Assembly (NCBI GenBank): GCA_049322295.1
Contig: JBMORO010000040.1
Location: 33,960 to 65,959, forward strand
DNA length: 32,000 nucleotides
Direction: 5' to 3'
From: Patescibacteria group bacterium
Lineage (GTDB): Bacteria; Patescibacteriota; Minisyncoccia; RBG-13-40-8-A
The notes beneath the pieces are model-generated. The model saw only the letters and a list, made by a program, of their open reading frames with translations, did not search any database and was not told where the DNA came from. Both the position numbers and the translations under genes were made by a program. Below, piece by piece: positions 7,478 to 29,906 of this stretch. Each line of letters starts with the position of its first letter. Position 1 is the stretch's first letter.

Positions 7478-7480
7478 AAT

Positions 7481-7630
7481 GTCTACAAATTTACAAATAA
7501 ATACAAATATACAAATTAAATACCGGGCACTACCCGGTATTTAATACGGCTAGAGTTATCCCTTTGGTTTAAAAACTTTTGGGAAAAATAATCATATTTG
7601 TACATTTGTAAAAAATTTGTACTTTTGTAG
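7481..7630. repeat. Family B AT-rich palindrome, copy B1 (split arms with a 76-bp central insert)
   Basis: The left arm is GTCTACAAATTTACAAATAAATACAAATATACAAATT (7481-7517). The right arm is ATATTTGTACATTTGTAAAAAATTTGTACTTTTGTAG (7594-7630). The centre carries the hairpin AAATACCGGG-CACTA-CCCGGTATTT (7518-7542). Confidence 0.7.
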
Positions 7631-7977: not shown

Positions 7978-7984
7978 AATGCTT

Positions 7985-8053
7985 GTCTACAAAAATACAA
8001 ATTTTTACAAATATACAAATTTGTAAATTTGTATATTTTTGTAATTTTGTAGC
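7985..8053. repeat. Family B AT-rich palindrome, copy B2 (tuf stop to rpsJ start)
   Basis: GTCTACAAAAATACAAATTTTTACAAATATACAAATTTGTAAATTTGTATATTTTTGTAATTTTGTAGC is an imperfect palindrome centred on ACAAATTTGT. It abuts the tuf TAG (8054-8056) and ends 7 nt before the rpsJ GTG. Confidence 0.75.
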
Positions 8054-9250
8054 CTATTTGATAATTTTAGTTACCACTCCAGCTCCAACTGTCTTGCCGC
8101 CTTCTCGAATAGCAAATCTTTGTTTTTCTTCCAGAGCAACCGGATTAATTAATTTAATGGTCAACTTAACTGTGTCACCGGGCATAACCATTTCTGCCCC
8201 TTCGGGTAAGGCTACTATATCACCAGTTACATCAGTAGTTCGGATATAGAATTGGGGTTTATAACCCTTAAAGAATGGGGTATGACGGCCACCTTCTTCT
8301 TTACTTAAGATATAAACCTCTCCTTCAAAATCAGTATGGGGGGTAACACTTCCTGGTTTAGCAATGACTTGTCCTCTTTCTACATCTTCTTTCTTTAACC
8401 CTCTTAAAAGAATACCGGCATTATCACCAGCCATGCCTTCATCTAATGATTTATTAAACATCTCAATACCTGTAACTACTGTCTTCTGGGTGGGTCTTAT
8501 ACCAACAACTTCAACTTCTTCATTTAGTTTAATAACCCCCCTTTCAATCTTTCCAGTAACTACTGTTCCTCGCCCTTCAATTGAGAAAATATCCTCAATT
8601 GGCATTAAAAATAGCTTATCGGTTTCTCTTTTGGGTTCGGGAATATACTCATCTATTGCTTTAACCAACTCAAAAACGCATTTAGCATCTTCGGAATCTG
8701 GAGAATCAGCTTCTAAGGCCTTTAAAGCCGAGCCTCTTATTACTGGAATCTTGTCGCCAGGGAATTCATATTTGGTTAAAAGCTCTCTTACCTCGGCTTC
8801 AACTAAATCAATCAACTCTGGATCATCAACTTGGTCAATTTTACTAAGAAAAACAACTATTGCCGGTACACCGACCTGACGAGCTAACAAAATATGCTCC
8901 CGGGTTTGGGGCATTGGACCATCAGCAGCTGAAACAACTAAGATTGCTCCGTCCATTTGAGCAGCTCCGGTAATCATATTTTTAATGTAATCAGCATGGC
9001 CAGGAGCATCGATATGGGCGTAGTGCCTCTTTTCGGTCTCATATTCAACATGAGCCAAGGCAATAGTAATACCTCGCTCTCTTTCTTCAGGAGCATTATC
9101 AATATCATCTACCCCTTTTTTAGAGGCCAGAAAACCCTTTGCTCCTAACTGCTTTAGAATAGCTGCAGTTAAGGTTGTTTTACCGTGGTCAACATGACCA
9201 ATTGTCCCAACATTAATGTGAGGTTTTGTTCGTTCAAATTTTTCAGCCAT
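8054..9250 (-). CDS. tuf: Elongation factor Tu
   Basis: 398 aa starting [31 protein letters not shown], with the DAPGHADY and NKxD-equivalent regions. Confidence 0.99.
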
Positions 9251-11536: not shown

Positions 11537-12007
11537 TTACCAAGCAAAATGGGCGAAGGCGCGATTGGCTTCGGCTATTCGGTGGGTTTCTTCTTTCTTT
11601 TTAACTGCCTCACCAGTATTATTAAAGGCATCAACTAATTCTTTGGCTAATTTTTCTGCCATTGATTTACCTTTTTTCTTTCGCGCTGCTTCAATAATCC
11701 AGCGCATGGCTAAAGCCTCTCTCCTTTTTCCTTTAACTTCGTAAGGAACCTGATAATTAGCTCCTCCTACTCTTCGCGATTTTACTTCTAATAAAGGAGA
11801 GGTATTTTTTATTGCCTCTTCTAAAATTTCTAAAGGATTATCTTTTTTTAGTTGTTTAGCTACTAAATCTAAAGCAGTATAAAAAATATTCTGAGCTATT
11901 GATTTTTTTCCTCTTTCCATTAGATTATTAATAAATTTAGCCACCAAAACACTATTATATTTGGAGTCAGGATTTGTTTCTGTTTTGAATGTTTTCTTTT
12001 TACGCAT
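11537..12007 (-). CDS. rpsG: 30S ribosomal protein S7
   Basis: [43 protein letters not shown] from ATG at 12007. The track extension MTEGN is leader read-through. Confidence 0.96.
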
Positions 12008-12043
12008 GTTCCCTTCGGTCAAAATAAAATATTAAATATAAAA
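12008..12043 (-). promoter_or_regulatory. Conserved translation-initiation leader motif (rpsG copy)
   Basis: Minus-sense TTTTATATTTAATATTTTATTTTGACCGAAGGGAAC precedes the ATG. It is 34/36 identical to the rpsN copy at 1066-1101. Confidence 0.5.
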
Positions 12044-12056
12044 GATAAAGTACTTT

Positions 12057-12545
12057 TTATTTTTTATTTTCCTCCTTGCCTTCTGGTTCGGTCGGCTTTT
12101 CTCCCTCTTCCACTGATGCTTCTCTTTTTATACCCACCTCTCCTTTCTTAGCTCCGTATTTTGATCTTTGTTGTTTCCGACCTTCCACTCCAGCTGTATC
12201 TAAGATTCCTCTAACAACATGATAACGAACTCCTGGCAAATCTTTTACTCTACCCCCGCGGATAATTACAATTGAATGCTCTTGCAAATTATGACCTTCA
12301 CCAGGAATATAAGCAGTTACTTCCATACCATTAGTTAATCTTACCCGAGCAACTTTTCTTAAAGCTGAATTTGGCTTTTTGGGAGTAGTAGTATAAACCT
12401 TTAAACAAACTCCTCGTTTAAAGGGAGAATACTCTTTAACTGGTCTGTTCTTGAGAACATTAAAACTTCGGCGAAGAGCCGGGACTTTCGCTTTTTTAGC
12501 TGTTTTCTTTCTTGGCCTTTTAATTAGTTGACGAATTGTTGGCAT
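12057..12545 (-). CDS. rpsL: 30S ribosomal protein S12 (with ~30 aa acidic/Lys C-terminal extension)
   Basis: [14 protein letters not shown]...[37 protein letters not shown] from ATG at 12545. The tail is ...[20 protein letters not shown]. Confidence 0.97.
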
Positions 12546-12620
12546 GTTCCTTTCAGTCAAATTAAAAATTAAAAAATAAAAATTTAAAAATAAACCTCAA
12601 ATTTATTGAGCTTAATAAAA

Positions 12621-12650: not shown

Positions 12651-12721
12651 TCGGGCTGCCGGGAGTTGAACCCGGATCGCATGCACCCCATGCACGTATA
12701 CTACCGTTGTACTACAGCCCG
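12651..12721 (-). tRNA. tRNA-Pro (anticodon GGG), no encoded CCA
   Basis: Hand-folded cloverleaf: CGGGCTG TA GTAC AACGGTA GTAT A CGTGC AUGGGGU GCATG CGAT CCGGG TTCAACT CCCGG CAGCCCG A. C1-G72, A73 and G37 are typical of bacterial tRNA-Pro. Confidence 0.9.
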
Positions 12722-13855: not shown

Positions 13856-13874
13856 GCTGCTTTTTTATTTTTTT
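13844..13874 (+). terminator. Rho-independent terminator after the 65-aa ORF
   Basis: GCAGCC-GAATA-GGCTGC (13844-13860) is followed by TTTTTTATTTTTTT. The stop codon TAG lies in the loop. Confidence 0.75.
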
Positions 13875-14722
13875 ACGAAGAAATTAATTCCGTCACTTAA
13901 AATTTCTACATCCCCGTCTCTATCAGTCTGAAAAATCCCTAAATTCGCCAATCTTTCTAAAACCTCTTGATGGGGGTGGCCATATTTATTATCTTTGCCA
14001 ACTGGAATTACTGCTAAAATCGCATTCACTGCTTTCAAAAATTCTTCGGAAGTGGATGTTTTGCTGCCATGATGAGCGATTTTTAAAATATCAGATTTAA
14101 GATTGACACCAGCAGAAATTAGTTTATTTTCCACGCTTTTTTCAATATCTCCGGTAAAGAGGGCCTCAAAATTGTTATAAACTAATTTACCAACAATAGA
14201 TGTGTTATTACTTTCGGAAAGTTCCTTACCAACCAAGGTTTCAAAAGGATAAAGAATATCGAATCTTATTCCATTATTAAAATTGATTTCTCCGCCAGAT
14301 TTGGCAAGATAAATCGGAATATTCTTTCGCTCAATATTTCTCAGCCATTCTTTATATTGTTCAGTGTCTCGAAAAATACCAGTCATAATAATTGCGCCAA
14401 TTTGATATCTTTTGATAATTTCAATTAAGCCACTTAGATGGTCGGCTTCGGGATGACTTAAAATTATCAAATCAATATATCGATCATAAAAAGGCATTTC
14501 CCTGCCGATTTTTTCCAAAATTGACAAATCCGGACCACCATCAATCAATATCTGTTTTTTGTCCATTGTTTCAATAAAAATCGCATCTCCCTGCCCAATA
14601 TCAAAAAATTCTACTTTCAAAAATTTATTGCCTTCTTGTTTAAAAACAAAAATCCAAATAATAATCGCAATTATAAAAAGAAATATTAATAAACCAATTT
14701 TTTGTTTCTTTTGTATAACCAT
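13865..14722 (-). CDS. comEC: ComEC/Rec2 C-terminal part: TM helix plus metallo-beta-lactamase domain
   Basis: MVIQKKQKIGLLIFLFIIAIIIWIFVF then LKVEFFDIGQGDAIFIET...SHPEADHLSGL...HHGSKTS, the MBL motifs of the ComEC C-domain. The first ATG is at 14722 and the maximal ORF reaches 14767. It is in the -1 frame relative to the upstream comEC part. Confidence 0.85.
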   Translation of the reverse strand: MVIQKKQKIGLLIFLFIIAIIIWIFVFKQEGNKFLKVEFFDIGQGDAIFIETMDKKQILIDGGPDLSILEKIGREMPFYDRYIDLIILSHPEADHLSGLIEIIKRYQIGAIIMTGIFRDTEQYKEWLRNIERKNIPIYLAKSGGEINFNNGIRFDILYPFETLVGKELSESNNTSIVGKLVYNNFEALFTGDIEKSVENKLISAGVNLKSDILKIAHHGSKTSTSEEFLKAVNAILAVIPVGKDNKYGHPHQEVLERLANLGIFQTDRDGDVEILSDGINFFVKK

Positions 14723-15993
14723 ATAAATCCAATTATTAAAATATAATAACCTATTAAAAATAACCAATGTACGTTTTTAATTTCCTTGGCCGACCAAGGA
14801 ATTTTGGAAAGTAAATCTATGGCCCGGATAACATAAGTAAAACCCAAATAAACCGGCCATAAAATAATCTTTGCCAAGAATGACCAGATAACTGCCGAAC
14901 CAATAAAAATAAAACCCAAAATAGTTAAAAAATAAATTGTCGGCACAATCAGAATATTGGCAATTGGTGAAATAAAAGAAATTCTGCCAAAATTGTAAAT
15001 CAAAACCCCCAAAACCGCGATTTGGGCAGCTAAAGTAGTGGTAATTATTTCCAAAAGCCAACCAATTTCCTCAATTTTTCTTAATTTTTCCAGCCATTCA
15101 TCCAAAATCGGTTTAATGTAAATCAAACCAAAAACCGCTAAAAAAGATAACTGGAAACCAACATCATATCTTAAAAGTAATGGATTAAAAATCAACATTA
15201 TTGCGCCAGCAAAAATCATAATCCGAGTGGCATTACTTAGCCGACCGATTTTTTGCGCGTAGAGCAGAAGGGCGCCCATAATCCCAGCCCGAATCGCAGA
15301 AGCAGGCGCGCCAACCATAATAATAAAAAGAAAAATCAAAACCAAAACAAACCAAAATGCCTGCTTACGCCACATTCCCAATCCGATTAAAACAAACATC
15401 AAAATCTCAGAAATAATCACAATATTCATTCCCGAAATTGCCACAATATGACTGGTGCCAGTAATACTTAATTCATTTTTTATTTCTTCGGAATATATCT
15501 GTTTATTGCCTAAAATTATCCCCTCTAAAAGCGATATTTCAGGAAAAGGCATAATTTTTTCTATTTTTTCAGTTATTTTATTTTTAAATTTTAAAATTGC
15601 CGAATAAATAAAAAATCCTTTGTTTCTTTCTAAAATTTCAATTTGCGGATAATACATTACTGAATAGATGTCTTCTTTGGCTAAGTAGTTTTTGTAGTTA
15701 AATTCCTCAAATACAGCTGGCGTCTTTAATTTGCCTTTAATTTTTAAAACATCACCATAAAAATATTCTGGATAATTTTCCGTGGTTACTAGAACTTTCC
15801 CCTCCTCCGTTTTTATTATCAGTTTGGTGTTATTGGATTTTATTTCTGGTTCTTTAACAACCTTGCCAACAAAAACACCCCCATCTTTCTCAGAAAGGTG
15901 AGGGTTATTTTTCTCAATCAATCCCGGCGACCCCAAAAACACCACTACAATAAATATCAAACAGATAACGAGAAAAATATTAGAAATTTTCAT
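14686..15993 (-). CDS. comEC: ComEC/Rec2 N-terminal part: OB-fold (DUF4131-like) plus polytopic competence channel domain
   Basis: 435 aa with an N-terminal TM, a soluble domain and then ~9 TM segments (SHIVAISGMNIVII..., typical of the competence domain). The start overlaps the nrdG stop by 4 nt. Confidence 0.85.
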   Translation of the reverse strand: MKISNIFLVICLIFIVVVFLGSPGLIEKNNPHLSEKDGGVFVGKVVKEPEIKSNNTKLIIKTEEGKVLVTTENYPEYFYGDVLKIKGKLKTPAVFEEFNYKNYLAKEDIYSVMYYPQIEILERNKGFFIYSAILKFKNKITEKIEKIMPFPEISLLEGIILGNKQIYSEEIKNELSITGTSHIVAISGMNIVIISEILMFVLIGLGMWRKQAFWFVLVLIFLFIIMVGAPASAIRAGIMGALLLYAQKIGRLSNATRIMIFAGAIMLIFNPLLLRYDVGFQLSFLAVFGLIYIKPILDEWLEKLRKIEEIGWLLEIITTTLAAQIAVLGVLIYNFGRISFISPIANILIVPTIYFLTILGFIFIGSAVIWSFLAKIILWPVYLGFTYVIRAIDLLSKIPWSAKEIKNVHWLFLIGYYILIIGFIWLYKRNKKLVY

Positions 15994-19002: not shown

Positions 19003-20202
19003 CTATCTCATTTCTCCTAACACAGCCTTAACTACAATCTCTTTATCATCCCTTAAAATCTTCAAATTAACCTTATCACCTGGTCTGTGTTTAGAAATTA
19101 ATTTTGCTAAAGTATTATTCTCATTTATTCTTGTTCCATTTAGCTCCAAAATAATATCCCCTTCTTTAATACCAGCTTTATCAGCTGCGCTATCGGGAAC
19201 AATGGCTGGCTCATCTGGATTGTCTCCTCTGCTAATAAGGGCCCCGTAATCAACTGGCAATTTATTGCTCTCAGCAATTGCTTTGTTAACTAAAATATAG
19301 CGAACACCTAAAAATGCATAAATTATCCTCCCTTTAGTTTCAATATCAGCGATATCTCTCTTTACTTTATTTATAGGAATAGCAAAACCAATATTTTCTG
19401 CTTCGGTAGCTACAGCTGTATTCATCCCAATCACTTCCCCATAAAGATTTAAAAGCGGACCACCGGAATTACCCGGATTAATTGCCGCGTCAGTTTGAAT
19501 TATATCTTCTAATTGTTCACTGATTCCGCCTCCACTGGCTGTTATTGTCCGCAAAAGTCCAGAAATTATGCCAGAACTTACTGTGTTTCTAAATTGACCT
19601 AAGGCATTGCCAATAGCAATTACGGTTTGACCAATCTCTAAATTATCAGAATCACCTAATTTAACCACTGGAAGATTAGATGCCTCTATTTTAACAATAC
19701 CAATATCTTGAACTGGGTCACGAGCTAAAATTGTGGCCTTATACCTATTTCCATCATTGGTTAAAACCGTATATTCCGCCTCATCATCTAAAACCACATG
19801 TTTGTTAGTAGCTATTAAGCCATTAGAAGAAACGATGAAACCTGTGCCCGCTCCTACTTCTCTTAATTCTTTTCCTTTTTCCTGAATTATAGGAATTCTG
19901 ATATCAAAAGGACTATTTTCGCCAAAAGGATTATAATAACCCTGTTCATAAACAGGCACATATTTACTAATAATAATACTTACCACTGCTGGCGAAGCTT
20001 CTTTTACAACCTGGGGAATGGTTTCTGGCAGTTGAACCTGTTTTTCTTTTGATAATTCTTTATATAATAACTGACCAAAATAAACCGAGGGGATTAAACC
20101 GCCAAGCAAACCAAAAATAAAAGAGACAATAATAATCCAAAAAATAGGTTTCTTTAAAAACCTAAATTTTAAATCTGATCTATAAAAATAAAATGACTTC
20201 AC
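19003..20202 (-). CDS. htrA: HtrA/DegP-family serine protease (trypsin-like domain plus PDZ)
   Basis: It has an N-terminal TM, the catalytic regions TNKHVV, D and GNSGGPLLN, and a C-terminal PDZ domain (GIKEGDIILELNG). The maximal ORF reaches an ATG at 20223 inside element A3. I favour GTG at 20202 (MKSFYFYRSD...), as explained in the findings. Confidence 0.92.
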   Translation of the reverse strand: MKSFYFYRSDLKFRFLKKPIFWIIIVSFIFGLLGGLIPSVYFGQLLYKELSKEKQVQLPETIPQVVKEASPAVVSIIISKYVPVYEQGYYNPFGENSPFDIRIPIIQEKGKELREVGAGTGFIVSSNGLIATNKHVVLDDEAEYTVLTNDGNRYKATILARDPVQDIGIVKIEASNLPVVKLGDSDNLEIGQTVIAIGNALGQFRNTVSSGIISGLLRTITASGGGISEQLEDIIQTDAAINPGNSGGPLLNLYGEVIGMNTAVATEAENIGFAIPINKVKRDIADIETKGRIIYAFLGVRYILVNKAIAESNKLPVDYGALISRGDNPDEPAIVPDSAADKAGIKEGDIILELNGTRINENNTLAKLISKHRPGDKVNLKILRDDKEIVVKAVLGEMR

Positions 20203-20341
20203 CCCGTACCGAAACTTCGACATTTATACATCGAACATCGAGGTCTCTAAAATTAATAATTATTGTATATCAATTATTTTATTCTTGCCCCCGTACTTTC
20301 GTCCCGACTAAAGTCGGGGCAGTCGAAGTTCTGGTACGGGG
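20202..20341 (-). mobile_element. Family A MITE-like element, copy 3 (140 bp) between the last minor pilin stop and the htrA start
   Basis: TIRs are CCCCGTACCGAAACTTCGAC (20202-20221) and GTCGAAGTTCTGGTACGGGG (20322-20341). Direct TTCA repeats lie at 20198-20201 and 20342-20345. Confidence 0.7.
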
Positions 20342-20347
20342 TTCATC

Positions 20348-20695
20348 TTAGAAAGAAACTTCTATTGAACGTTTAGTGTTTTTATAACAGCCAATTGATT
20401 TAAGATTAACACTATCACCAGTCCTACTAACCCCAACCCCGTAATAACTACCATTAGTTAAAGAAACTGAGCATTCGGCACGACTCTGGGCGCCAGTTTG
20501 TTGCCATTCCTCAAATAATGCCCGCTCCACTCCTGTCTCAGCTGCATAGTAAGCAATTAAAGAAGCTGGGAGGTCTCTTACTAATTTTATTTCACCTAAA
20601 CTTAATCTTGCTATTCCAATAGCCATACTCAAAAGAGCAGCCATTACTAAAAGCGTTAAAAGAAGAGCAGCGCTTTTTTGGTTGGTGATTTTCAT
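20348..20695 (-). CDS. PilX-like minor pilin / pseudopilin (no canonical G/F cleavage motif)
   Basis: 115 aa with the hydrophobic N-terminus SAALLLTLLVMAALLSMAIGIARLS. It is the last of four consecutive pilin-like genes and overlaps the upstream gene by 4 nt. Confidence 0.6.
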   Translation of the reverse strand: MKITNQKSAALLLTLLVMAALLSMAIGIARLSLGEIKLVRDLPASLIAYYAAETGVERALFEEWQQTGAQSRAECSVSLTNGSYYGVGVSRTGDSVNLKSIGCYKNTKRSIEVSF

Positions 20696-24896: not shown

Positions 24897-24903
24897 AAAA
24901 TTT

Positions 24904-24971
24904 GTCTACGAATTACAAATTCCTTACGAATTTACGAATTTGTATATTTGTAGAAATTTGTATTTCGTAGT
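24904..24971. repeat. Family B palindrome, copy B3 (pilT stop to pilC start)
   Basis: GTCTACGAATTACAAATTCCTTACGAATTTACGAATTTGTATATTTGTAGAAATTTGTATTTCGTAGT abuts the pilT TAG and ends 7 nt before the pilC start. Confidence 0.75.
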
Positions 24972-26045
24972 CTATTTGCCTAATAGCATCCTTAAATCAG
25001 ATGGGCTTAATGAATATATCTCAGCGTTTTCTAATGAAATTTCTCCTTTATGAACCAAATCAGCCAAGGACCTGTTTAAAGAAATCATTCCCTCTTCTGT
25101 ACTCGTCTCGATAACTAAATCTATTTGATAAATTTTTCCTTCTCTAATTAAATTCCGGACAGCTGAGTTTGCTATCATTACTTCTACAGCCGGGATTCTG
25201 CCTCCGTTTACTTGAGGAACTAAACGTTGAGAAACAACACCTAAAAGGGTAGCGGCTAATTGAGCCCGAACCTGATTTTTGGCCTCAGCGGGAAAACTAT
25301 CAATTATTCTATCAATGGTTTGGGGGGCATTATTGGTATGAAGGGTGGCTAAGACCAAATGACCGGTTTCAGCAGCAGTTAAAGCTGTGGAGATTGTCTC
25401 TAAATCCCTCATTTCTCCTACCATTATTACATCAGGGTCTTGACGAAGAGCTGAACGCAAAGCCCGGGCAAAGCTTTTGGTATCATTTCCTACTTCTCTC
25501 TGGTCAATAATACTTTTGTCCTGGTCAAAAATATATTCAATAGGATCCTCGATAGTGACAACATGTTTGGCAAAATGATGGTTTATATAATCAATTAAAG
25601 CAGCTAAAGTAGTTGTTTTGCCATGACCAGTGGGACCAACTACTAAGAAAAAACCTTGGGAATGGGAAGCAAATTTTTCAACAATAGATGGTAGGTTAAG
25701 TTCTTTAACTGTTCTTATCTTTGGGGGGAGAAAACGCAAAGCAGCAGAGAGATATCCGCGTTGGAAAAAAACATTCACCCGAAAGCGAGCTTTTTCTTTA
25801 TAACTATAAGAAAAATCAATTTCCTTATCCGTAAAAAGTTTCTGCTTTTGTTCTTCGGAAAGAAGGGCATAAATTAAACCAGCAGTATGTTCACTGGTTA
25901 AAACTGGATATTTTGTTAACTCTGTTAGTTTGCCATCAATTCTGATAGCTGGTCGCTTGCCCACTGTAAAGTGAAGGTCAGAAGCATTATGTTTGCCTAC
26001 TATTTCTAAAAATTCTTCTAACTCTATTTGATAATTGTTTTTCAT
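24972..26045 (-). CDS. pilT: Twitching-motility retraction ATPase PilT
   Basis: 357 aa with ASDLHFTVGKRPAIRIDGKL, Walker A GPTGHGKTT, DPDVIMVGEMRD and ETGHLVLATLHTN. Confidence 0.93.
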   Translation of the reverse strand: MKNNYQIELEEFLEIVGKHNASDLHFTVGKRPAIRIDGKLTELTKYPVLTSEHTAGLIYALLSEEQKQKLFTDKEIDFSYSYKEKARFRVNVFFQRGYLSAALRFLPPKIRTVKELNLPSIVEKFASHSQGFFLVVGPTGHGKTTTLAALIDYINHHFAKHVVTIEDPIEYIFDQDKSIIDQREVGNDTKSFARALRSALRQDPDVIMVGEMRDLETISTALTAAETGHLVLATLHTNNAPQTIDRIIDSFPAEAKNQVRAQLAATLLGVVSQRLVPQVNGGRIPAVEVMIANSAVRNLIREGKIYQIDLVIETSTEEGMISLNRSLADLVHKGEISLENAEIYSLSPSDLRMLLGK

Positions 26046-26047
26046 AA

Positions 26048-26112
26048 GTTCTACGAATTACGAATTAGTACGAATATACGAATGTCTCCAAAAAAAATTG
26101 TAATCTTGTAGC
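26048..26112. repeat. Family B palindrome, copy B4 (degenerate; pilin stop to pilT start)
   Basis: GTTCTACGAATTACGAATTAGTACGAATATACGAATG...TTGTAATCTTGTAGC. The left arm is intact and the right arm is eroded. Confidence 0.55.
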
Positions 26113-28310: not shown

Positions 28311-28315
28311 AAGAT

Positions 28316-28384
28316 GTCTACAAAACTACAAATAATTACGAATATACAAATTTGTATATTTGTAGAAATTTGTATTTCGTAGCC
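28316..28384. repeat. Family B palindrome, copy B5
   Basis: GTCTACAAAACTACAAATAATTACGAATATACAAATTTGTATATTTGTAGAAATTTGTATTTCGTAGCC abuts the TAA at 28385 and ends 5 nt before the pilB GTG. Confidence 0.75.
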
Positions 28385-28702
28385 TTAATAAGGTATAAAA
28401 GGGTTTTCCCGACCAGTGGTTCCTTTTTTCACCGGTATATTGCCGTGAATCTTCAAAAATGATAAAATCTTCTGATTTAAAAACTCAAAATCTAAATTAA
28501 TCCTTTTCAATTTTTCTTCTAAGATAGCTGGCAATTGTTCTCCTTCGCCTTCAGGAGAGACTGGCTGAGATTCCGGAGGAACAACTTTTTCTTTTTTCCA
28601 AAAACCAAAATATAAAACCAAACCAGTGATTGCAAAAATAACCAGGGCTACAATTAATAAAATCTGCTGACGCTTTCTTTGTTCCAGGGATTTAATGGGC
28701 AT
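28385..28702 (-). CDS. Small single-pass membrane protein of the pilus operon (PilP-like position; family not recognised)
   Basis: 105 aa with one TM segment (ILLIVALVIFAITGLVLYFGF), a Pro/Glu linker and a C-terminal ...GRENPFIPY. It sits between pilO and pilB. Confidence 0.6.
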   Translation of the reverse strand: MPIKSLEQRKRQQILLIVALVIFAITGLVLYFGFWKKEKVVPPESQPVSPEGEGEQLPAILEEKLKRINLDFEFLNQKILSFLKIHGNIPVKKGTTGRENPFIPY

Positions 28703-29824: not shown

Positions 29825-29829
29825 AAGAT

Positions 29830-29899
29830 GTCTACAAAATTACAAATTAGTACGAATTTACAAATTTGTATATTTGTAAAAAATTTGTATTTTGTAGCC
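29830..29899. repeat. Family B palindrome, copy B6 (pilM stop to pilN start)
   Basis: GTCTACAAAATTACAAATTAGTACGAATTTACAAATTTGTATATTTGTAAAAAATTTGTATTTTGTAGCC. The proximal flank AAGATG-GTCTACAAAA is identical to that of B5. Confidence 0.75.
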
Positions 29900-29906
29900 T
29901 ATTTTG

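Follow-up and report, generated by a model that had tools for sequence, protein, structure and literature searches.

A putative miniature inverted-repeat transposable element family associated with start codons in Patescibacteria

The 32,000-nt stretch of Patescibacteria DNA analysed here (contig JBMORO010000040.1, positions 33,960 to 65,959; hereafter the window) carries a minor-pilin-like gene followed by htrA, and at the junction of the two lies a 140-bp repeat element that was delimited by direct reading of both strands. The element is the third window copy of a repeat family, here called family A, which is interpreted below as a transposable element of the miniature inverted-repeat kind (MITE), and all genes neighbouring this copy are on the minus strand (Table 1). 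Its ends are 20-nt terminal inverted repeats (TIRs), CCCCGTACCGAAACTTCGAC at 20202-20221 and a near-complement of it at 20322-20341. It is bordered by a perfect 4-bp target-site duplication (TSD), TTCA, at 20198-20201 and 20342-20345, which on the minus (coding) strand is TGAA, base for base as the initial annotation of the window had read it.

On the coding strand the junction runs from the pilin TAA through a G and ATG AA into the element, and out of the element into TGAA GTC ATT TTA T. When the element and one repeat are deleted, the sequence becomes ...GTT TCT TTC TAA G ATG AAG TCA TTT TAT..., and reading both strands confirmed this reconstruction, in which the pilin stop is followed after 1 nt by the htrA ATG. 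In the present sequence the old htrA ATG (20346-20344) opens ATG AAC CCC GTA CCA GAA CTT CGA CTG CCC CGA CTT TAG, the 12-codon mini open reading frame (mini-ORF) ending in TAG that had been described, while at the other end the terminal G of the element and the TG of the repeat form, as likewise claimed, a GTG (20202-20200) directly before the original second codon. The GTG shares its frame with the ORF 19003..20223 and lies 21 nt (7 codons) downstream of the ATG at 20223. The junction thus reads as if the element had landed in ATG|AA of htrA, creating G|TG AAG TCA, which would encode the ancestral MKSF... N-terminus. The ATG at 20223 had been placed inside the TIR, which was slightly loose: of its three bases only the G, the innermost base of the TIR, belongs to the repeat arm, the A and T falling immediately interior to it. 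The heptapeptide MSKFRYG that it was said to add is indeed what the repeat encodes. The same htrA insertion is present in the Logan assembly of run SRR32167786 (locus L121, a 5,970-bp contig). Exact-protein look-ups of the genes at the window edges gave no record that would extend the contig.

Table 1. Family A copies in the window, and the parts and neighbours of copy 3.
Feature	Position	Strand	Basis or remark
Family A copy 1	340-475 (with TSDs 336..479)	(-)	TSD CATA/TATG; rpsH-TAA-T-ATG(rplF, MSRIGK)
Family A copy 2	4021-4158 (with TSDs 4017..4162)	(-)	TSD CATA/TATG; rplV-stop-N6-ATG(rpsC, MGHKVHP)
Family A copy 3	20202-20341	(-)	TSD TTCA/TGAA; pilin-TAA-G-ATG(htrA); TIRs and TSD read; aligned with copies 1 and 2 and 21 metagenomic copies
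5' TIR arm, coding orientation, CCCCGTACCAGAACTTCGAC	20322..20341	(-)	TIR match and copy alignment
3' TIR arm, coding orientation, GTCGAAGTTTCGGTACGGGG	20202..20221	(-)	terminal G (20202) supplies the first base of the rebuilt GTG
Upstream TSD copy, TGAA	20342..20345	(-)	with A20346 makes the original ATG-AA
Downstream TSD copy, TGAA	20198..20201	(-)	its TG finishes the GTG
GC hairpin, CCCGAC-N4-GTCGGG	20303..20318	(-)	adjoins the 5' TIR; folding and family alignment
Mini-ORF, 12 codons, MNPVPELRLPRL + TAG	20308..20346	(-)	starts at the orphaned original ATG; stop ends at 20308
Rebuilt in-frame GTG	20200..20202	(-)	would restore ancestral (M)KSFYFY...; parallels L128, L142, L144, L149
Alternative in-frame ATG	20221..20223	(-)	inner TIR edge; would add MSKFRYG
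htrA (S1C serine protease, PDZ domains)	19003..20202	(-)	399 codons from GTG
Minor-pilin-like gene, 115 aa	20348..20695	(-)	TAA stop 1 nt before the original htrA ATG

The ancestral start of htrA was assessed from its relatives. HtrA orthologues were 55-81% identical to the GTG-start product, and the N-termini of the 60 best relatives read overwhelmingly MKSF(R/H)(I/F)YN..., otherwise MKLF or MKRF. The gene order pilin-htrA-nrdD is kept in two related contigs, and comparison of their htrA 5' ends, which the initial annotation had suggested, showed uninterrupted junctions with an MKS-type start in both: TAT TAA AAAT ATG AAA TCG TTT in L152 (81% identity) and ...AAATAAT ATG AAA TCA TTT in L155, from Ca. 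Portnoybacteria RBG_13_40_8. No empty allele of the pilin-htrA junction was found in the same species. Because of the orthologue N-termini and the two empty junctions, ATG-AAG-TCA-TTT is taken as the ancestral start, in agreement with the one originally assigned. None of the 60 closest relatives had the MSKFRYG extension, the only other instance being this very locus when called from ATG 20223, and the interpretation in the initial annotation thus withstood this check. The extension is repeat-encoded and not conserved.

Two starts could nevertheless serve the interrupted gene, and existing gene calls differ. When protein collections were searched with the GTG-start product, an identical NCBI entry of 399 aa came up ('S1C family serine protease, Patescibacteria group bacterium'). 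The NCBI pipeline thus calls the GTG, whereas an identical 406-aa Logan call (Prodigal-type, also in L121) starts at ATG 20223. If htrA were translated from that ATG, the protein would carry MSKFRYG and the GTG would be incidental. Such a reading has several points in its favour, as no stop separates the two codons, a short extension before the membrane anchor is likely harmless, and an in-frame ATG is kept by all three TGAA-class copies with the GTTTCRG variant of the TIR (copy 3, L142 and L144). It has to contend, however, with the lack of the extension among the orthologues, with the choice of the GTG by the homology-aware NCBI annotation, with two loci in which a GTG at the element edge suffices (L128 and L149, described below), and with the predicted RNA structure. 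On read-through RNA, opening of positions 0 to +12 was estimated to cost 4.7 kcal/mol at the GTG and 14.3 kcal/mol at ATG 20223, from constrained global folding, as local-window accessibility underestimates the TIR helix; on a transcript without the 5' arm the corresponding values for positions -3 to +15 were 3.5 and 8.1 kcal/mol. ATG 20223 is costly to open because the bases downstream of it, including the first 12 nt, are the TIR arm. These modelled energies lend the GTG modest support. Taken together, the GTG is probably used at a meaningful level in htrA, and the odds that it is the principal start are a little better than even; translation from ATG 20223 with an incidental GTG is a serious contender, though the less probable one.

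Rebuilding of a GTG recurs in the family. Besides htrA, the TGAA class comprises tsaE (L128), rplB (L142, MKIYKPTTPGRR), a methyltransferase-like gene (L144) and an NTP-transferase gene (L149, MKVIILAGGK), found in the metagenome survey described below; all five sites derive from ATG-AA and always give G|TG-AA. The copies at L128 and L149 carry the TIR variant ATG TCG AAA ATC TAG TAC GGG GTG, and because of the in-frame TAG three codons upstream the GTG is the only possible start there. Pfam domains in these two proteins begin at residues 3-7 counted from the GTG, and in L149 position 1 of the NTP_transf_3 profile aligns to residue 3. In htrA, L142 and L144, with the GTTTCRG variant, the ATG at -22 is open and in frame, and either start could serve.

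Family A elements are 124-143 bp long, with three copies in the 32 kb of the window and 21 sites elsewhere. In the window the TIR motif was found five times at no more than 3 mismatches, where 0.01 would be expected by chance. All 24 copies have 20-nt TIRs of the form CCCCGTAC-N6-TTCGAC, with compensatory differences between subfamilies, and all 24 end in GGGG. The TSDs are 4 bp, occasionally 5 bp (TATG, TATGA, TGAA, TCAA), and their class is independent of the element subfamily. A GC hairpin stands by one end, followed by an AT-rich core and a small hairpin by the other end; the sequence of the GC hairpin varies while its pairing is kept, as pairs 23-29/34-40 of the family alignment show by their compensatory changes, and each window copy folds into a long TIR stem around it (z-scores -4.9 to -8.5). 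An AG/GA swap sets the two arms apart in every copy at TIR positions 9-12, one having CTGAAT where the complement of the other has CTAGAT; this is a conserved stem mismatch, and the arm that carries each version flips between subfamilies.

The TSDs of copies 1 and 2 include the ATG, which is therefore present on both sides of the element, and copies 1-3 share one orientation relative to the downstream gene. All three window junctions bear out the earlier observation that the insertions are at start codons and that each keeps a start. The TSDs are real, because the reconstructed junctions match orthologues (rplF MSRIGK, rpsC MGHKVHP and HtrA MKSF). Only mini-ORFs of 4-42 codons occur inside the copies, none of them a transposase ORF. 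The idea that translation from the host ATG might run across the TIR and yield a transposase gained no support, since a protein search with the 42-aa mini-ORF matched only the query. With TIRs, site-dependent TSDs, a small size in multiple copies that lack a transposase ORF, and presence or absence at orthologous sites, family A has, as far as sequence can tell, the hallmarks of a MITE.

The survey beyond the window was carried out on metagenomes, requiring both TIR cores 85-115 nt apart and leaving the flanks unconstrained. After orienting and de-duplicating, the 30 loci found yielded 21 further independent sites, or 24 with those of the window. An earlier genome scan with a 14-base single-TIR pattern had been too loose, nearly all of its 120 matches being chance matches in GC-rich genomes; its sole real copy was L033, at the pheS start of Ca. 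Portnoybacteria RBG_13_40_8. The start-codon rule, proposed from three of three copies in the window, extended to 23 of the 24 independent sites. There the element coincides exactly with a start codon, and the ORF that follows is 90-522 codons long or runs off the contig; the orientation relative to the gene was constant in all 23, in both TSD classes. The TSD was xATG at 18 sites, plus the tandem locus L143 (mostly TATG, twice TATGA, in some cases CATG or AATG), and TGAA at 5 sites. The exception was L137 (289-419), with a TCAA duplication, diverged TIR interiors (TTCGGGTC) and no long ORF beside it; this only copy off a recognisable gene start has just a 20-codon ORF upstream.

The host genes include rplF, rpsC, rplD, rpsL, rplB, rplT, nusG, rpoD, pheS, ruvC, tsaE and uvrD, with ribosomal-protein genes making up 6 of the 23. 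The host ORF starts are considered true N-termini, because Pfam domains (RuvC, L20, TsaE, UvrD, NusG, L4, NTP_transf_3) begin at residues 3-17. No copy shows a change in the gene-side ATG, whereas in four the orphaned ATG upstream was mutated, to AT- (G lost) in L131, CTG in L139, ACG in L147 and CTG in L151, with the changes always within the ATG. This pattern suggests that selection acts on the gene-side start and that the spurious upstream start is dispensable or mildly harmful. In the GC-rich groundwater contig L143 (382-634), two diverged copies stand in tandem at one start, TAA-CCGT-TATG|copy|TATG|copy|TATG-CCC-GAA..., an arrangement that would imply a second insertion into the duplicated TATG and may hint at a hot spot.

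As regards the reason for the association with starts, the tetranucleotide itself is clearly preferred. At junctions of the TAA-T-ATG-AGT type, seven registers of insertion would spare both the stop and the start, and only the TATG (or TGAA) register is used; genes without a T at -1 (htrA, L128, L149) use TGAA. The context of the sites (A-A-T-ATG-A/G) is nearly the background gene-start context of these genomes, and a weight-matrix model failed to tell starts apart from ATGs elsewhere: no more than 51% of its matches outside coding sequences were starts. The share of non-coding tetranucleotides that fall at starts anyway was 37% for TATG and 14% for TGAA with a crude ORF caller, 47% and 21% with an improved caller over 138 kb, and 72-78% and 40-60%, as a high end, in the hand-curated window. 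The crude-caller null overcounts 'intergenic' sites, for which the curated window map and the improved caller correct. Depending on the null, the chance of finding 19 of 19 xATG insertions at starts is about 6e-7 to 9e-3, and that of 5 of 5 TGAA insertions about 4e-4 to 8e-2. Because starts already constitute 37-78% of TATG and 14-60% of TGAA outside coding sequences, preference for the tetranucleotide together with loss of gene-disrupting insertions explains much, possibly not all, of the association.

Family A is therefore best read, with a probability of roughly 0.7, as a non-autonomous cut-and-paste MITE that prefers TATG and TGAA and is kept at starts by selection. The element would insert into TATG and less often into TGAA. 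In these very compact, AT-rich Patescibacteria genomes a large share of the non-coding TATG consists of a T and a start codon, and insertion there duplicates the ATG, which spares both the stop on the upstream side and the start on the downstream side. Insertion into TGAA would be tolerated at ATG-AA(R) starts, since the G at the end of each copy makes GTG with the following TG. Selection would filter the insertions, leaving copies at start codons.

Some observations weigh against this reading. Even with the most generous null the association is improbable (about 0.009 for 19/19 and 0.08 for 5/5), and the automated nulls give far lower values. The constant orientation (23/23) has no explanation under preference and selection: a flipped element would spare the start equally, because both ends are near-identical and finish in GGGG. 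Starts adjacent to the element on read-through mRNA need 10-19 kcal/mol to open, compared to a background median of 4-5, and as essential genes are among the hosts an unmasking mechanism must be assumed. At htrA, ATG 20223 is in frame and a stronger codon than the GTG. Finally, an autonomous partner was not found in the fetched loci, in viral contigs or by the mini-ORF peptide search; a fuzzy TIR scan of all fetched loci returned MITEs only, and the viral contigs gave two chance matches and no family A element. The orientation could stem from a target recognition that is itself asymmetric, from selection on features inside the element or from a bias between replication strands, gene direction being confounded with replication direction at these loci.

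A stronger form of targeting, in which the insertion machinery (transposase or cofactor) homes on translation starts in one orientation, beyond the four bases, would account for some of these points. The element would then be expression-neutral and without a terminator, the start would be kept via the TSD or the terminal G, and the TIR helix would set the upstream stop by the downstream start, allowing coupling. The 23 of 24 sites at starts, compared to nulls of 47-78% (TATG) and 21-60% (TGAA), argue for such homing, as do the shared orientation in both TSD classes, the failure of the weight matrix to recognise starts, the two diverged copies at one start in a GC-rich host (L143), the ribosomal-protein genes among the hosts, and the absence of a terminator-like T-run after the GC hairpin on either strand of the element. 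On the other hand, the site context is nearly that of any gene start in these genomes, the curated window null alone already reaches about 0.72-0.78, and the confounding with replication direction weakens the argument from orientation. To our knowledge there is no DNA-level mark of start codons that a transposase could read, which also counts against homing. Overall this explanation is rather unlikely, although, if true, start-codon homing would be a new kind of target selection and would give mobile DNA a 'safe niche' in ultra-compact genomes that has not been described before.

It is highly improbable that the repeat, instead of being mobile DNA, is a cis-regulatory RNA or a leader belonging to the host (for example a riboswitch, an attenuator or a ribosomal-protein leader), since the strong folding, the compensatory changes in the hairpin and the position directly upstream of start codons are outweighed by perfect short flank duplications of differing sequence with 20-nt TIRs, by presence or absence at orthologous junctions, by mutually unrelated host genes, and by the lack of an Rfam match in 20150-20400, which spans the element, even at E<=1, the sole gathering-score match in the window being a tRNA at 12651-12721. 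Equally improbable is an inactivation of htrA, now a pseudogene or silent: the predicted burial of its start region beside a 20-bp helix on read-through RNA would speak for it, but the ORF of 399 codons is intact and 76-81% identical to orthologues over its full length, and like insertions stand at the essential rplB, rplF, rpsC, rpsL, rplD, rplT, nusG, rpoD and pheS.

Expression of the host genes may survive the insertion by way of upstream translation. Genes in the window have almost no Shine-Dalgarno motifs; their upstream regions are AT-rich, with a T at -1 in about 62-70%. Many window genes are only 1-10 nt apart. In 16 sites the upstream stop lies 0-10 nt from the TIR helix, which would place that stop opposite the downstream start. 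Translation of the upstream gene, or of the mini-ORF that the upstream ATG would still drive into the 5' arm, would melt the outer helix and expose the downstream start, a model with which the lack of a terminator-like T-run after the hairpin also agrees. RNase III cleavage of the helix or an internal promoter may be alternatives to such unmasking. An outward promoter inside the element is a weak possibility: GGGG-TATAAT is common in one subfamily and absent from window copies 2 and 3, and a scan of copy 3 for sigma-70-type promoters gave no candidate on the gene strand. The GGGG end was rejected as a Shine-Dalgarno sequence, its spacing being 0-1 nt in a genome without Shine-Dalgarno use, and so, as a general feature, was a role of the left-ATG mini-ORF as a coupling relay, since 3 of 24 reach the terminal TAG/TAA, most stop mid-element and the lengths follow no modulo-3 rule. 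The ATG located 22 nt from the 3' end of the element meets a TAG/TAA of the TIR itself ahead of the gene start in 13 copies, is absent in 5, in frame with the gene in 3, and out of frame and overlapping the gene start in 1. Like the decay of the orphaned upstream ATG, these fates point to selection on the gene-side start.

Small repeats of related kinds are known from other bacteria. The Correia elements (CREE) of Neisseria, RUP of pneumococcus and ERIC/IRU of enterobacteria are small non-coding TIR repeats that can affect mRNA processing and expression (PMC3184786). Family A resembles them in being small, non-coding and multi-copy, with TSDs, a TIR stem in the RNA and positions between operon genes. 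In contrast to these elements, which duplicate TA or other sites and scatter intergenically, it duplicates xATG or TGAA and sits on starts at 23 of 24 sites, in one orientation. A Correia/IS630-type assignment was rejected, as no flank register gives TA...TA for the TGAA class. Neisseria REP2 and the Borrelia IR, which carry their own promoter, ribosome-binding site and ATG and lack TIRs and TSDs (PMC3184786), are likewise directly upstream of ORFs and fused at the translation start. In family A, however, the ATG comes from the host TSD, and in the TGAA class only the G of the GTG comes from the element. A REP2-type start repeat was dismissed on account of the TIRs and TSDs, the host-derived ATG and the lack of a scored sigma-70-type promoter in copy 3.

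Rickettsia palindromic elements (RPE) enter coding regions in frame, and the protein comes to include them. Like them, family A is palindromic, mobile and tolerated at the edges of essential genes in reduced genomes, and its repeat can be translated, but it stays outside the ancestral protein, save for the 7 residues that three copies could optionally add. Tn7 relies on a DNA-binding protein dedicated to targeting and has a single site, attTn7, downstream of glmS. Family A shares with it a position that spares essential genes and a fixed orientation, whereas its potential sites number in the hundreds and are set by four bases and their context. An IS200/IS605-derived PATE was rejected, since the TSDs are real and the ends pair with each other as TIRs. 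Members of the IS1380 family are reported to have ends beginning with CC and TSDs of 4-5 bp, with which family A is compatible; no membership is claimed. The full-text literature searched, with coverage limited to one collection, contained no description of such a MITE family. As the wider result, family A is a probable MITE of Patescibacteria that is associated with start codons.

It is striking that a structured insertion of 140 bp sits inside the S10/spc/str ribosomal-protein operons, nusG, rpoD and pheS of a minimal genome without destroying these genes. These operons are the most conserved ones, and they tolerate such insertions because a start codon is duplicated or rebuilt by the very chemistry of insertion. 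For annotation, these loci are a source of error: gene callers disagree there (399 vs 406 aa), and may add repeat-encoded extensions or miss a GTG. Moreover, starts 0-1 nt from a 20-bp helix evidently work, which makes them natural test cases for initiation independent of Shine-Dalgarno motifs and for translational coupling.

The window contains further features of note. A second repeat family consists of AT-rich, palindromic TACAAA/TTTGTA arrays (7479-7517, 7983-8059, 24902-24978, 26056-26083, 28314-28390 and 29828-29904), which end ...TTTGTAGACA(T)NTT on the gene strand, 3-4 nt before the starts of at least 6 genes. They could serve as arrays of operators, or as promoters whose mRNAs would have no leader or almost none. 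Elsewhere a leader of about 60 nt is conserved: ...ATTTTATTTTGAC(T/C)GAAGGGAA(T/C)ATG occurs at 1063-1124, 12005-12066 and 12543-12604, preceding a zinc-ribbon S14-like gene and ORFs with predicted starts near 12022 and 12560; the GAAGGGA within it is the only Shine-Dalgarno-like motif seen in the window. Lastly, two ORFs at 13865-15993 on the minus strand, one of 435 aa and membrane-rich, the other of 300 aa, overlap by 82 nt in different frames and, identified by eye, may be the two halves of a ComEC-type competence protein, as a split gene or a frameshift.

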